From Candidatus Thorarchaeota archaeon (GTDB lineage: Archaea; Asgardarchaeota; Thorarchaeia; Thorarchaeales; Thorarchaeaceae): DNA of 64,000 nucleotides. The stretch spans positions 1 through 64,000 of the forward strand of contig JAOUFI010000006.1 in NCBI GenBank assembly GCA_029858305.1. The letters are read 5' to 3'. This document shows positions 11,191-15,425 of this stretch, piece after piece. The position numbers and the translations under genes were made by a program. A model generated the notes under the pieces. It was given only the letters and a program-made list of their open reading frames with translations, did not search any database and had not been told where the DNA came from. Each line of letters opens with the position of its first letter. Positions within the stretch are counted from its first letter, which is position 1.

Positions 11191-11550
11191 CTATTCTTCA
11201 AAAATCGTTGATTCCTTAGAAGCCCCTAGTTCTGTTATTGAAGGAACTGAGCCATCATCAGCGATATGTTCGTATTTTCCCGAGCGACCTAGCGAGAGCT
11301 GTACTTTTCCCTGCCATTCCTTCGCCCAACCATCCTCTATCTTTATGACCATTCCTGCAGAGAGATCGTTACCTTCATTAAAACCCCAAAGAGAGAGAAT
11401 TGCGGATCCAGAATCATCAGCCACCAGGACTTCTTTTAGCATAGTTTTACGTCCCGCTCGAGTCTGAATAATTCTAGGAGATGCGATTGATATTATCCGG
11501 ACGATAAGATCAGATACGCTTTTACTAGGCTCAACATCAGATAGCTTCAC
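11191..11550 (-). CDS. Single OB-fold ssDNA-binding protein (archaeal SSB/RPA)
   Basis: VLVADDSGSAILSLWG...IKIEDGWAKEWQGKVQLSLGRSG. Confidence 0.88.
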   Translation of the reverse strand: MKLSDVEPSKSVSDLIVRIISIASPRIIQTRAGRKTMLKEVLVADDSGSAILSLWGFNEGNDLSAGMVIKIEDGWAKEWQGKVQLSLGRSGKYEHIADDGSVPSITELGASKESTIFEE

Positions 11551-11615: not shown

Positions 11616-13643
11616 TTAATCCTCATCTTCACCTGAATCGACGAAATCTAGTAGACGACTCAGTTCATCTAATGATTCATTATTTATAGGTGAGTTCTCA
11701 GAGTGCTGCTTAGTGTCATTAGAATCTTTTTTCTTGGTTCCACCTACAGCACTATCCAGAGGGCCGAGAATAAGCTCTAACTCCTCAAGTGACTCGGCAT
11801 CAATCTCTTCTCGAATGTCGGACTCCCCCTCGGTAGGAGTAGCCTCATCACTCTTAAATGCTTCAAGAGCTTCATCGATTTCAGTATGAGAAACAAGATC
11901 AAGTTCTGCGGAGATGAATTCATCGGCCTCGAGAGCTTCGAATATAATTTCTTTGGCCATTTTTACGCCTCCGTTGTTTTCTTCAGCAATCGGTTCTATT
12001 CCGAGTTTCTCTTCAGGTGGAAGTTCCTCTTCAGCAAAATCGATTTGTGGTAATTGTTCTTCTACTTCTATCGAAGATTCTTCCTTTGGCAATTCAATGG
12101 AAATATCCATGGAGATTTCATCAATCTCTTTCGACTCCTCCATGTGGGAGGGTTCAAATCCTTCACCCTCTTCCAATTGCATGCCTGTCGCAAAAGCATC
12201 TTCTTCTGTAGTCTGGTCCGGTCCTATTGCTTCACTGAGAGCATCAGCTTTAGCAAGTTCGACTTCTTGGTGTATCAAATGTTCCTCAGAGAACTCTACT
12301 TCTAGAGGAAATGATTGAATCTCTGCTTCAAGCGGAGATACAGAGATTTCTACTTCCTCCTCTACTTCCTTAGTTTCCTCTATAATGGCCTCAGGAATCG
12401 GTTCAGAAGATGCAATCTCATCTTCGACTTTTACTTCAGGCTCGGGTTCAAAGAATTCTACTTCCGCCTCTGCTTCCTCAATCTCCTCTAACATCACATC
12501 AGGAGCTAGTTCCGGAGAAACAATCTCTTCTTTTGTTTCTTCTTCTTCAAAGAGATCTTCATCTACTTCTTCAATGACTTCTTCAATTATCTCATAGTCA
12601 TTTAGGTTCTCAATGACATGTCCATCTTCGTCAACCAAGACTTCCTCGACCACTTCAATAGTCTCGAATTCAGATTCTTCAATCTCTGCAGTTTCCCTTC
12701 GTTCCTGCATCGCATCTGTCTCAGCTATCGCTTCCTTGGTTGCGGCATCTGTAAACTTCAAGAGCTCGGATGCCGGAAGATCCGGAAGAGCAACACCAAC
12801 ATATTGTGCTGCAGCAGTCATCAAAATCCTTAGCATCTCATCACGCCTAGCCTTGTCAATTGCAACCATTGGAAAGGTAGGAATTCCTAGTATCTTCTGA
12901 ACGACCTCAGGTTTCATAGCGTTTGGTTTATCCTGTTTATTAGCCAGAGCAAAGACGGGAACCTTCGGAGCGTCTCGTTTAATGAGCTTGAGAATGTCCT
13001 TACTGATTATCACGTTACGAAGAGCTGAATCACAAACTAAGAAGATTACATCAGCTCCATGGAAATAGAATCGCCATAGTGTTCGAAAGCGCTCTTGTCC
13101 TGCAAAATCCCAGAGGACAAGACTGTAGTTGCCAAATCTGATGTTTTCAACAGTTTCAAGATTGAGAGCTATTGTTGGGACATATTGCAGTGGTGGTGTG
13201 TCTCCAAGTAAAAGGTGGAGTGTTGTTGTTTTTCCAACACCACCCTCTCCAACTAGCGCAATTTTCAATCTGGTGGTCACAGATGGTTCAACAAGTTTTT
13301 CATACCCTTGCTTCACAGCGTCAAGTCCTGATTTTTTCAGCTCCTTTCTCATGAGCTTCGATGCAGCTTCAACCTTCTCGAATATGCTTGATTCGTCTTC
13401 TCCTTTATCAGTAACAAACAGTAAAAGAAGGTCTGAAACCAAGTCCACTCCATGAAACTTGTGATCTCCTAATATTAGTGCTAGACTTTCTAGATGCGTA
13501 TCATTGCTCTTTTCAGAACGAAGTTCTTCCCTTGTTTTGACATATTCGCTAAGAATCTCATGTGACACATCAACGGGCCAATATTTAGTGAATGCAATTA
13601 TTTCTTGTGTTGAGATGCGTATAAGGAAGGTGTTGTGAATCAC
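11616..13643 (-). CDS. Longin/roadblock-like N-domain + Arf/Rab-like small GTPase + ~370-aa Glu-rich tail
   Basis: G1 GEGGVGKT, YVPTI, WDFAGQERFRTLW..YF.GAD, NKQD; low-complexity acidic C-terminal half. Confidence 0.85.
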   Translation of the reverse strand: MIHNTFLIRISTQEIIAFTKYWPVDVSHEILSEYVKTREELRSEKSNDTHLESLALILGDHKFHGVDLVSDLLLLFVTDKGEDESSIFEKVEAASKLMRKELKKSGLDAVKQGYEKLVEPSVTTRLKIALVGEGGVGKTTTLHLLLGDTPPLQYVPTIALNLETVENIRFGNYSLVLWDFAGQERFRTLWRFYFHGADVIFLVCDSALRNVIISKDILKLIKRDAPKVPVFALANKQDKPNAMKPEVVQKILGIPTFPMVAIDKARRDEMLRILMTAAAQYVGVALPDLPASELLKFTDAATKEAIAETDAMQERRETAEIEESEFETIEVVEEVLVDEDGHVIENLNDYEIIEEVIEEVDEDLFEEEETKEEIVSPELAPDVMLEEIEEAEAEVEFFEPEPEVKVEDEIASSEPIPEAIIEETKEVEEEVEISVSPLEAEIQSFPLEVEFSEEHLIHQEVELAKADALSEAIGPDQTTEEDAFATGMQLEEGEGFEPSHMEESKEIDEISMDISIELPKEESSIEVEEQLPQIDFAEEELPPEEKLGIEPIAEENNGGVKMAKEIIFEALEADEFISAELDLVSHTEIDEALEAFKSDEATPTEGESDIREEIDAESLEELELILGPLDSAVGGTKKKDSNDTKQHSENSPINNESLDELSRLLDFVDSGEDED

Positions 13644-13766
13644 TATTACTTCACCAGATTATCTAATAGATTATACACTGTTGTGGAGAATCCACTCAAT
13701 ATAGAGTAGGATATTACAGGCTTGATTAACTTGTTTTGTGTGTACAATCTTTGATTTTCAAGAAAC

Positions 13767-14012
13767 AAGTTAGATGTTGGGGGTTCAGAGAACCCCAAAC
13801 ATCCGTTGGAGCGTGTTCTTCCACAGGAGCGGCAAAATTCGTTTATGCGCAAGAACAGTAGCAGTTCACACTGCAATTAGGGACTAGAACTCGTGGGACC
13901 GTGTATTGCGAGTTCCTGACGGGGGAAGACCGCCACCTGTGTGAAGTTCACAATGGATGAAACCCTAAATCGCCATAAGAAGCTTTCTGGTTTACCAAAA
14001 AAAGTTAGATGT
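13767..14012 (+). ncRNA. Candidate structured ncRNA or non-autonomous mobile element flanked by 11-bp direct repeats
   Basis: Nested helices 13800-13812/13946-13959, 13814-13820/13851-13857, 13865-13871/13939-13945, 13887-13896/13906-13915, with G-U pairs favouring the + strand; AAGTTAGATGT at 13767-13777 and 14002-14012. Confidence 0.55.
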
Positions 14013-14140
14013 GTCTATTTTCTTGATTCACAACTTATAGGTCTCTTTTTTGTAATATTCGCAAGAAAATATATTGGAATTGTGAATTTAGCAATACTGC
14101 TAATGTGTCAATAGTAAGCCCGCAATAGAATTTTCATAAC

Positions 14141-15280
14141 TCATCGAGGGAAGTTATCTCGTAGGAGCCTGAGATGCTGATGAACCATCTCCATTGCCTT
14201 AGGATCATCGGGAGTCTTTTCCAAGTCAGTTACAAGAGTTTGCAAGAAATACTCTGGGAAGAATAGCCGAACCCTAATATCATTCAGAAGAAACAGCCAT
14301 TTATCATATTCACCAGAAGGTCCTTTCCTACGCTTCTCTGAAACAACTCTGAATTTCTTGAGAGTCTGAATTGCCTCCTTCAGCTCCTTTGGAGGAATAC
14401 CTAGTGTAGCTTCCAATTCTGATATGTTAGCAGGACGCCTTCTGAGTTCACTAAGTGTATCATAACAATCGGGGTCTGCTAATACTTGAGCCACAGATAC
14501 CGTATCCTCAGGTGTCTTCTGCCATTCAGTGAGAAATTCAAGAACCTCCGATTTGTACTCAGCTGCAAGTTCTGGATCGAGAACACTGCTTGCGGATTCC
14601 ATTGCAACAAGCGGTGGGGCTCTAAATACTTCGAGGTCCTTAATCATAAAGACACAAGTACGGCCAATCTCATCGACCCATTCTGTCTTTACGAGTCCTA
14701 GTTCTTCAAAAGGAGCGATAATTGAGTCCACACTAACACTTGGAAGACCAGTGACCATCTTCAACCATTCTTCAAGTTCTTCTTTGGATATGCCTCCTTT
14801 CCAAAGTTTGGGAAAGACAGCCCTACTCACCTCATCGGAGAAAAGCCGTGCTAGTCGAGACTCATCGGTCATACCAGCAAGTCTGATAATTCGCCTGTAG
14901 GTGTTGTCCAGTTCATCCTGAAGTTCTGCGTCAGTCAATGCAACCACAGCATTCGTAAGAGGAGTCACAATCGAGGTGATTGCAGCCTCGTACATCTTTG
15001 GATCCTCTGAGGGAGTAAGCAAGAGAGACACACAATACTGTTCCTCCTCCCTCACTATTCCAGTATAGTAGGATGCAACACCATACTCTTCACCACCAAT
15101 TCGAATACTAAGTGATGAAAAACCAGCTGTGGCATCGCCCATGGCGTGAGAAGTGAAGATACGCATAATTTCTGTATTTAGATCTTCGCGATAATAATCA
15201 GCAAAGTCTGCAGGTACCTTCGCCTTCAGTACAGCTCCAATCTTTGAGTCCCAATCTATAAGCAGCATTGCAACCGGCAT
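14141..15280 (-). CDS. Longin/uDENN-like domain protein with winged-helix C-terminus (NPRL2/DENN-like architecture)
   Basis: N-terminal LLIDWDSKIGAVLKAKVP matches the uDENN/longin F.FD...GP.L...P pattern; C-terminal HTH (ISELEATLGIPPKELKEAIQTLKK). Confidence 0.65.
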   Translation of the reverse strand: MPVAMLLIDWDSKIGAVLKAKVPADFADYYREDLNTEIMRIFTSHAMGDATAGFSSLSIRIGGEEYGVASYYTGIVREEEQYCVSLLLTPSEDPKMYEAAITSIVTPLTNAVVALTDAELQDELDNTYRRIIRLAGMTDESRLARLFSDEVSRAVFPKLWKGGISKEELEEWLKMVTGLPSVSVDSIIAPFEELGLVKTEWVDEIGRTCVFMIKDLEVFRAPPLVAMESASSVLDPELAAEYKSEVLEFLTEWQKTPEDTVSVAQVLADPDCYDTLSELRRRPANISELEATLGIPPKELKEAIQTLKKFRVVSEKRRKGPSGEYDKWLFLLNDIRVRLFFPEYFLQTLVTDLEKTPDDPKAMEMVHQHLRLLRDNFPR

Positions 15281-15425
15281 TTCGCTTCTCTCCCAGTCCC
15301 TGGGGGCTTGTTCTGCATAGAGCCAGAGTATTTACGATTCAGTGAGTCACATATTAAAACCTTGTCACTAGCGAGTTCGCGACCGTATTATTCTGGTATA
15401 TATAGCGCCTAGGGATTTGTGTATA

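Follow-up and report, generated by a model that had tools for sequence, protein, structure and literature searches.

In the 64,000-nucleotide (nt) stretch of Candidatus Thorarchaeota DNA analysed here (contig JAOUFI010000006.1, positions 1 to 64,000, hereafter the window), the minus strand from ~13948 down to 13766 is, judged by sequence comparison among relatives, a free-standing gene whose product is a structured small RNA of ~185 nt. That the minus strand of 13766-13948 is a real RNA gene we regard as highly probable, and the comparisons give a well-supported case for a new structured RNA family that is confined to one Thorarchaeota family and has no match in Rfam 15. As to its function, the reading we favour, tentatively and with somewhat less than an even chance of being right, is that the RNA regulates by base pairing the gene upstream of it, which encodes a protein of 379 amino acids (aa) with a longin and two winged-helix domains, and that it does so via the ribosome-binding site of that gene.

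Covariation points to a structured RNA on the minus strand

The source genome, an archaeal bin with a completeness of 88.9%, comprises 3.04 Mb in 205 contigs. A 500-bp gap between two minus-strand genes of the window (11616-13643 and 14141-15280) contains a GC-richer block, which an earlier note on this DNA had described, from the single sequence, as a folding element at 13767-14012 and possibly a novel non-coding RNA. Both points stood up. The block folds better than shuffled sequence on either strand, with a z-score of -2.64 on the plus strand (2 of 200 shuffles equally good) and -3.37 on the minus strand (0 of 200), and the minus-strand single-sequence fold of 13766-13948 reaches a z-score of -3.73 with the same helices as the covariation model. 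Novelty is borne out by the covarying structure, by the Rfam searches described below and by the occurrence of the element in most genomes of the family.

An alignment of relatives consists of invariant sequence blocks separated by helices that vary on both sides. The structure was drawn by hand on a MAFFT alignment of 9 close relatives, the basis of covariance model R1, with which the 20 copies of the genus were aligned (alignment A5). In A5, 96.3% of 870 cells pair as opposed to 71.0% in shuffles, double changes occur in 32 of 44 pairs, and controls with slid partners are paired to 41-45%. The covariation score is 0.657 (0.204 in shuffles) and was reached by 0 of 500 shuffles, a count that is not to be read as a probability, since the genomes are kin and the alignments are fitted to the model. 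An alignment spanning five genera (A6; 33 rows, 3 of them spurious partial antisense matches) is paired to 93.9% (64.4% in shuffles), with double changes in 41 of 44 pairs and a covariation score of 0.541 against 0.154. Four helices covary, namely the closing stem P2, the hairpins P4 and P3 and the 3' hairpin P1; no covarying pseudoknot was found in the RNA alignments.

Read on the minus strand, A5 holds 70 G.U cells (in 20 pairs) against 4 A.C cells, beside 768 Watson-Crick cells, 28 other mismatches and 10 gaps. Because this excess of G.U over A.C agrees with the count in the MAFFT-only alignment of the 9 close relatives (20 against 2), we place the RNA on the minus strand and not on the plus strand, where the earlier note had folded it. 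In several pairs a minus-strand G.U, which would be A.C or C.A on the plus strand, is intermediate between the A-U and G-C states of other genomes.

The comparative structure retains part of the fold that had been drawn from one sequence. The proposed arm GAACUCG/CGAGUUC is P4 and covaries, whereas the arms UGUUCUU/AAGAACA and UUCACAC/GUGUGAA are replaced by the covarying P2 and P3. The hairpin at 13773-13803 is real and covaries as P1, but it lies at the 3' and not the 5' side, and the closing stem with which it was thought to compete is absent in relatives; in that stem, CAUCCGUUGGAGC/..CAAUGGAUG, the 3' half is not conserved among them. A suggested pseudoknot UUAGGG/CCCUAA is lost as well, as CCCUAA (13963-68) falls in a variable spacer outside the RNA.

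A scan against Rfam, which had been proposed as a check on novelty, matched no known family: at gathering thresholds Rfam 15 gave 0 matches anywhere in the window and 0 in 9 homologous loci of other genera. At E-values up to 10, the locus itself returned only 13-16-bit noise from unrelated families with nothing on the RNA core, and at E-values up to 5 the scan of 6 homologous loci returned weak unrelated matches, none of them on the core and none recurring; the weak matches across the source locus and these 6 loci span 13-23 bits. The window has no tRNA genes, and no Pfam family was found for the open reading frames (ORFs) at 13646-13876 (minus strand) and 13941-14114 (plus strand). A small peptide encoded by the RNA was considered and dropped, the longest AUG frame having 5 codons and not being conserved. 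The lack of motifs of the signal recognition particle (SRP) RNA, of RNase P RNA and of riboswitches, already remarked on in the earlier note, agrees with the Rfam scan; the SRP RNA of the source genome lies at C50:9890-10201 (95 bits, 1.5 below the cut-off) and its RNase P RNA at C44:45535-45873 (157 bits), both away from the block, which can accordingly be neither of the two. Our literature search, which did not cover subscription journals and closed supplements, found no paper describing this Thorarchaeota RNA.

Four sequencing runs labelled as RNA libraries, from four studies and with one run marked as probably DNA, each contain a small share of the sequence words of the stretch; their Logan contigs match only 13765-13955 and leave the flanks uncovered. 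In three runs the contigs continue into unlike flanking sequence and hence come from relatives; they are unstranded, and DNA carry-over or longer transcripts are possible. The probably-DNA run contains adapter-flanked fragments at 13817-13932 at a depth of 27-37.

Distribution and synteny

A genome-wide search found the block once in the source genome. Of the 27 other members of the genus searched with BLASTN, 21 have a single copy, and 33 more distantly related genomes gave no match. A pattern scan of public genomes returned at least 119 matching stretches, 17 of which resemble the element, the others being chance matches in bacteria; a strict motif pattern occurs in 47 of 400 genomes of the phylum, all of them in the family, and in 0 of 314 outside it, with 2 matches for the reversed-pattern control. 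Model R1 produced full-length matches in 51 of the 86 genomes of the family, belonging to five genera, and in five more genera diverged copies were found by eye downstream of the ortholog of the 379-aa gene. Model R2, built from 23 copies of 11 genera over 158 positions and with only the top of P2 and P4 modelled, matches 76 of the 86 family genomes (13 of 16 genera), and at E-values up to 0.1 it has no match in the 80 genomes searched from 28 Asgard families other than this one; of the sister family f2, one genome was searched. Each genome has one match except G011, where two copies lie at C103:215-363 and C21:38527-38694, the second with longin and GTPase flanks of its own; two strains in one bin (7% contamination) are likelier here than a duplication.

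The RNA always lies 80-330 nt downstream of the 379-aa gene. The order of thymidylate kinase gene, 379-aa gene, RNA, GTPase gene and OB-fold (oligonucleotide/oligosaccharide-binding fold) gene is kept in genera g1, g3, g4 and g7. In g5 and g6 the gene after the RNA is convergent, 1.1-1.3 kb separate the RNA from the GTPase gene in g10 and g36, and in g9 the GTPase gene is not within the flank examined. Because the RNA does not always precede the GTPase gene, a leader or riboswitch of that gene is ruled out as a general reading.

Promoter-like element and architecture of the RNA

All features that follow are given on the minus strand. A BRE/TATA-like element (B recognition element and TATA box) at 13974-13988, which reads AGAAAG-CTTCTTATG and has a family consensus of about CYAGAAAGCTTCWTATG, is conserved upstream of the RNA in every genus examined, and the promoter motif has 1 match in the source genome, the RNA locus itself. 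The call of a putative promoter is based on the architecture of archaeal promoters. A variable spacer follows the element, with ~22 nt to the first conserved RNA base in g1 and ~45-50 nt, including an extra 5' hairpin, in g3 and g7. We infer that the conserved upstream block comprises BRE/TATA, spacer and start site, with transcription predicted to begin at ~13948-13951, within the 5' strand of P2. The promoter and the invariant junction nucleotides are better conserved than the flanking spacers. Upstream of the promoter-like element and downstream of the 379-aa gene lies a run of seven T residues (13996-14002), with T-runs at the equivalent place in several relatives; it is probably the oligo-T terminator of the 379-aa gene. 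On the plus strand this is the A7 run of the earlier note, which is present where it was reported and yet is not a 3' tail of the RNA, as on the coding strand it is a T7 run ahead of the promoter-like element.

In the RNA itself the long closing helix P2 holds a junction with the hairpins P4 and P3, and the hairpin P1 comes after it. Conservation begins in the 5' strand of P2 (13930-13951; GUG-AA-CUUC-A-CACAGG-U-GGCGG), which covaries with the 3' strand at 13813-13832, double changes affecting 17 of 18 pairs within the genus and 18 of 18 across five genera. The junction J2/4 (13917-13929; UCUUCCCCCGUCA) has a CCCCGUC core that is present in nearly all genera. P4 (13886-13916), composed of GGAACUCG, the loop CAAUACACGGUCCCA and CGAGUUCU, holds the first GGUCCC motif in its loop L4; it is paired in 100% of cells of the genus alignment, covaries in g33 and g36 (AAUCUC/GAGAUU and AACCUGU/ACAGGUU), and is closed by a G.U pair in 16 of 20 sequences and by G-C in 3. 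The second C-rich motif, the proposed seed, lies in J4/3 (13875-13885; AGUCCCUAAUU) and reads AGUCCC here and GGUCCC in most relatives. It is followed by P3 (13861-13874; GCAGU[GUGA]ACUGC), in which double changes are found in 4 of 5 pairs within the genus and in 5 of 5 across genera, and by J3/2 (13833-13860), with the near-universal CUUGCGCAU and a U-rich AAUUUU directly 5' of the 3' strand of P2; in J3/2, T89-A95 are invariant in alignment A7. A linker (13804-13812; GCUCCAACG), conserved as (C)CACG immediately before the GGAUG that opens P1, leads to the covarying P1 (13773-13803), with double changes in 9 of 13 pairs within the genus and, as helices 6 and 7, in 12 of 13 across genera. The 3' tail (13764-13772) consists of CUAAC and then a U/pyrimidine-rich tract, and pyrimidine/T-rich tracts occur after P1 in the genomes compared; tail and tract are probably the termination region. 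From ~185 nt in the source genome the RNA extends to as much as 225 nt in other genera.

Several further structural candidates were followed up. A tertiary pairing of CCGU in J2/4 with ACGG in L4 or the linker was discarded, as L4 reads UUGG in g5, g6 and g33 with J2/4 unchanged. An alternative hairpin between UGCGCAU and GUGCGC of the 3' strand of P2, by eye feasible in g3, g6, g7 and g10 and not in g1A or g4, may be a switch. Kink-turns, C/D and H/ACA boxes, a plus-strand G-quadruplex and the Sm-site layout of small nuclear RNAs were looked for by eye, and none is conserved or rightly placed. C/D guide RNAs carry a C box RUGAUGA and a D box CUGA with a kink-turn, and H/ACA guide RNAs a hairpin-pocket-ACA arrangement. 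In the alignments, inspected by eye, the CUGA- and GAUGA-like words are on the plus strand or not conserved, and of the ACA words the one after P2 takes part in base pairing, whereas the one near the 3' end is lost in G025; small nucleolar RNA models had no match on the RNA in the Rfam scans at relaxed E-values.

Lineage-specific additions to this architecture were also observed. A subgroup of g1 (loci L166, L168, L169 and L183, that is G019, G005, G021 and the second copy of G011) carries a 16-nt hairpin insertion, UGUUUCGAAAGAAACA, in J2/4 between GUCA and P4. In g3 and g7 (L165, L176, L181, L180) the additional sequence ahead of the shared core folds into a 5' hairpin that looks as if it covaries, and in g3 a second long hairpin replaces P3.

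A candidate target in the leader of the 379-aa gene

Depending on the genus, the RNA displays 2-4 unpaired motifs of the GGUCCC type, located in L4 and J4/3, with up to two more copies in other genera; those in L4 and J4/3 (GGUCCC/AGUCCC) stand unpaired in a structure that is supported by covariation. The proposed target is AGGGACUGGGA at 15291-15301 (minus strand), in the 5' leader of the 379-aa gene, where it overlaps the Shine-Dalgarno (SD) sequence GGGAGAG at 15288-15294; the leader of the source genome reads AGGGACUGGGAGAG, with the start codon (15278-15280) 8 nt beyond. In the mechanism we propose, the RNA would be a base-pairing regulator that acts through the C-rich motifs of L4 and J4/3, and these would pair with GGGAC(U/C) immediately 5' of, and overlapping, the SD of the 379-aa mRNA. 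Such pairing would control the access of ribosomes to this mRNA, most simply as repression, and the invariant single-stranded blocks CCCCGUC, CUUGCGCAU, AUUUU and CACGGAUG would probably build a tertiary fold or bind a protein partner.

This proposal draws on a target scan of the source genome, which comprised 3515 crude ORF start regions. For J4/3, which by computation can pair with AGGGACUGGGA over 11 bp, two of them G.U, the start region of the 379-aa gene ranks 1 of 3515 at -17.8 kcal/mol (mean -6.3, standard deviation 2.65); the same gene ranks 23 for L4 (-16.3 kcal/mol), 263 for J2/4 (-14.1 kcal/mol) and 1364 for J3/2 (-10.0 kcal/mol). Of 45 genomes compared, 41 have GGGAC directly ahead of the SD on its 5' side. 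The mRNA base that follows it and the opposing base of the small RNA (sRNA) are C/G in 20 of 24 genomes outside g1, the exceptions being G072 and G076 with UGGACC and G062 and G101 without the motif. Within g1, genomes with GGUCCC in J4/3 have U/G in 9 of 11 cases (G005 has C/G and G014 has A/G), and those with AGUCCC have U/A in 9 of 10 (G010 has A/A). The series C/G, U/G, U/A is, on these sequences, a putative compensatory path through wobble. When the leaders of 42 genomes were compared with dinucleotide shuffles, the median z-score of the pairing was -2.4, with 26 of 42 below -2.

A number of observations weigh against this proposal and keep it tentative. In the compensatory series each partner shows about one change, which makes the series statistically weak; the genomes are also kin. 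In 16 of the 42 genomes the z-score lies above -2, and pairing is weak in 3 of 4 g7 genomes and in g2, g5, g6, g33 and g36; the leaders of g5 and g36 lack GGGAC altogether, G072 and G076 carry UGGACC, and in G010 and G014 GGGACA stands opposite A or G. With 6-11 bp, G.U pairs among them, the pairing is short, and in the source genome the 11-bp duplex partly uses the last pairs of P4. A single target site would leave the 2-4 motif copies unexplained, and a simple antisense role would do the same for the conserved multi-helix fold and the other invariant blocks. Finally, the alignments behind the pair counts were fitted to our own model.

Other pairings were examined and set aside. AGCAUUG, which J4/3 contains in other genera, could pair with codons 4-6 of the 379-aa gene; the Ala codon there is free (GCA/GCG/GCC/GCU) and shows no constraint. 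The best genome-wide match of L4, at -24 kcal/mol, is the leader of a 389-aa M50-type membrane protease with an HEFAHG motif recognised by eye (G000 C205:234659-235825, minus strand); as a second target it was rejected, since the match is kept in 0 of 5 relatives and is probably due to chance. A genome-wide search for GGGACY near starts gave 14 loose candidates among 1488 occurrences and no evident regulon. Within the 379-aa gene a second UGGGAC is found at 15248-15253 (minus strand), in the codons of the invariant residues W10-D11. As this copy and the leader site lie on either side of the start codon, the initiation region might in principle be clamped by two motifs of the sRNA.

Alternative explanations

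The explanation that we place second, unlikely as we consider it to be, is a protein-binding scaffold or sponge, in which the exposed GGUCCC-type motifs and the invariant blocks would either be occupied by multiple copies of the same protein or serve to build a ribonucleoprotein; it holds this place because one short site leaves the repeated motifs and invariant blocks unexplained. The neighbouring longin/winged-helix protein is a conceivable partner, as is an Sm-like protein at AUUUU, and the leader match would then be secondary or due to chance. The repetition of the motif 2-4 times in loops and junctions with a genus-dependent number fits a scaffold, as do the many invariant single-stranded blocks unrelated to the proposed mRNA site, the elaborate covarying multi-helix junction, and g5 and g36, where the leader match is missing though the RNA keeps its motifs. 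It would leave unexplained, on the other hand, why the start region of the 379-aa gene comes out as the best of 3515 and how the C/G, U/G, U/A series arose. Clearly less probable is some other structural or catalytic RNA, for example a ribozyme, or the subunit of a housekeeping particle peculiar to the family, with conserved loops that make tertiary contacts. A single copy in nearly every genome of the family, as well as junction nucleotides and a promoter more conserved than the flanking spacers, would suit such a role; restriction to one family, with 0 of 80 other Asgard genomes, would be unusual for a core function. The SRP and RNase P RNAs are encoded elsewhere in the genome, no Rfam ribozyme family matches, no covarying pseudoknot was found, and the CCGU/ACGG candidate is lost where L4 reads UUGG.

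We consider it improbable, and slightly more so than a structural or catalytic role, that the RNA is a cis element, either a processed 3' untranslated region of the longin gene or a 5' leader or riboswitch of the Arf/Roc-type GTPase gene. In the source genome it shares the strand of both neighbours, its terminal hairpin and U-rich tract resemble an attenuator, and the contigs of relatives in three RNA-library runs extend past its 3' end, where DNA carry-over is possible. A 5' leader is at odds with the convergent next gene of g5 and g6, with the distant GTPase gene of g10 and g36, and with a separate conserved promoter-like element and SD between the RNA and the GTPase start in g1; a 3' untranslated region is at odds with the conserved BRE/TATA-like element, and in the source genome the T7 run, between the RNA and the upstream stop codon. 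That the RNA is encoded on the plus strand is very improbable: this strand also folds better than its shuffles and the helices are strand-symmetric, but the G.U to A.C ratios favour the minus strand, and on the plus strand a variable stretch would separate a conserved 3' block from the fold, whereas on the minus strand the same block is a BRE/TATA-like element at promoter distance. We give almost no credence to a mobile-element relic, proposed in the earlier note as a SINE-like (short interspersed nuclear element) retro-insert with target-site duplication or as an IS200/IS605 omega-RNA or right-end remnant. The direct repeat behind this idea exists, as the 11-nt AAGTTAGATGT flanks the block at 13767 and 14002 (a 15-nt pair with 93% identity) and the A-run adjoins its second copy; this second copy, however, is not kept in relatives, and because five two-copy direct-repeat families of 11-22 nt share the same 801 nt, the repeat looks like chance. 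Mobile-element readings fail because there is one copy per genome in fixed synteny. Of the further copies and empty sites suggested as a check, none were seen in the source genome and in the loci of relatives, respectively, and no transposase, TnpB-type or reverse transcriptase (RT) family was found among the 8 neighbouring ORFs scanned with Pfam, nor an Rfam match.

Relation to known RNAs

Base pairing through C-rich motifs is the mode of action of the RsaE/RoxS-type sRNAs of Firmicutes and of the UCCC loops of Staphylococcus RNAIII. Like these, the Thorarchaeota RNA has several unpaired C-rich loop motifs, which are proposed to pair with G-rich sequence where ribosomes bind a target mRNA; unlike them, it is archaeal, larger and built as a closed multi-helix junction, it has one conserved candidate target only, the adjacent gene, and it has no sequence or structure homology to them (no Rfam match). 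By analogy, we infer that it would work like the C-rich-motif sRNAs without being a member of them. RNAs of the CsrB/RsmZ type sequester a protein through repeated GGA loop motifs. They share with the RNA described here a short motif repeated in loops and junctions with a lineage-dependent copy number, and differ from it in the motif (GGUCCC and not GGA), in the lack of homology and in the archaeal host.

The archaeal Hgc RNAs and the bacterial raiA- and OLE-type motifs are orphan structured RNAs in Rfam, and the Thorarchaeota RNA resembles them as a free-standing, conserved and covarying RNA that was found via intergenic-gap conservation and has no biochemical function assigned; it differs in matching none of them in Rfam 15 and in its confinement to one Thorarchaeota family. 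Riboswitches and 5' leaders lie directly ahead of the gene that they regulate, on its strand. With riboswitches and attenuating leaders the RNA has in common a conserved junction fold followed by a hairpin and a U-rich tract, but there is no same-strand gene downstream in g5 and g6, the RNA has a promoter-like element of its own, and no ligand class is suggested. Its size of ~200 nt and, in the source genome alone, the short flanking repeats recall the IS200/IS605 omega RNA and SINE-like inserts, from which it is set apart by its single copy, its synteny in all genera, the non-conserved repeat and the lack of TnpB or RT nearby. An omega RNA adjoins a tnpB gene, or lies at its 3' end, together with an element end and usually in several copies per genome; a SINE-like insert comes in many copies, with an A-tail at the 3' end of its RNA and a target-site duplication for which relatives have empty sites.

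The candidate target is a concrete one, the ribosome-binding site of a longin and winged-helix protein that is very conserved and is encoded next to an Arf/Roc-type GTPase, and if the target link holds, it provides an experimental handle on the regulation of eukaryote-like GTPase modules in archaea. If it fails, the RNA still constitutes a clean new Rfam family and a candidate for structural work. A more far-reaching extension, which we think unlikely though worth stating, is that the RNA might be a dedicated riboregulator, or even the RNA subunit, of an Asgard small-GTPase module and might pair with the ribosome-binding site of a regulator like NPRL2/3 of GATOR1. If true, RNA-based control would be wired into a forerunner of eukaryotic longin-GAP (GTPase-activating protein)/GTPase signalling, and the highly conserved 379-aa protein would form a single two-part system with the RNA found throughout the family.

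Neighbouring genes

The conserved upstream neighbour of the RNA (14141-15280, minus strand) encodes the proposed target, the 379-aa protein, for which no Pfam family was found. The protein is 84-100% identical across the loci of the family, and among 1.8 billion representative sequences it falls into a cluster of its own, followed by a gap down to 35% identity. In its AlphaFold model (pLDDT, predicted local distance difference test, of 93.6) two winged-helix domains accompany a longin/roadblock-like domain at the N-terminus. Foldseek ranks chains of GATOR1 highest among PDB entries, 9v0j_A (E-value 8.8e-4) and 8fw5_C, and further matches include the SEA complex, FLCN/FNIP, a DENN domain and a Lokiarchaeota Roadblock-Longin protein, with low whole-chain TM-scores (template modelling scores) of 0.22-0.26. 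Within GATOR1, it is the NPRL2/3 subunits that the predicted fold resembles. Published work on GAP complexes with longin domains and on GTPase regulators of Asgard archaea includes PMC12290439 and PMC10933270. In five relatives the 379-aa protein has 2-3 paralogs per genome at ~25% identity, and some of its homologs are fused into proteins of 1300-2500 aa.

On the other side of the RNA, the gene at 11616-13643 (minus strand) encodes a protein of 675 aa, in which residues 123-262 form a GTPase domain of the Arf/Roc/Ras type. Genomes of g1 share a conserved element, (A)TACACA...CTTAATC, in the interval from the RNA to this gene, whose GTG start has GGTGA ahead of it; the two are possibly the promoter and SD of the GTPase gene itself. 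Only the first ~300 residues of the 675-aa protein are well conserved (67-92%). The 119-aa ORF at 11191-11550 (minus strand) matches OB-fold models of the SSB/RPA type below their cut-offs (best 68 bits against 176) and is syntenic in most genera.

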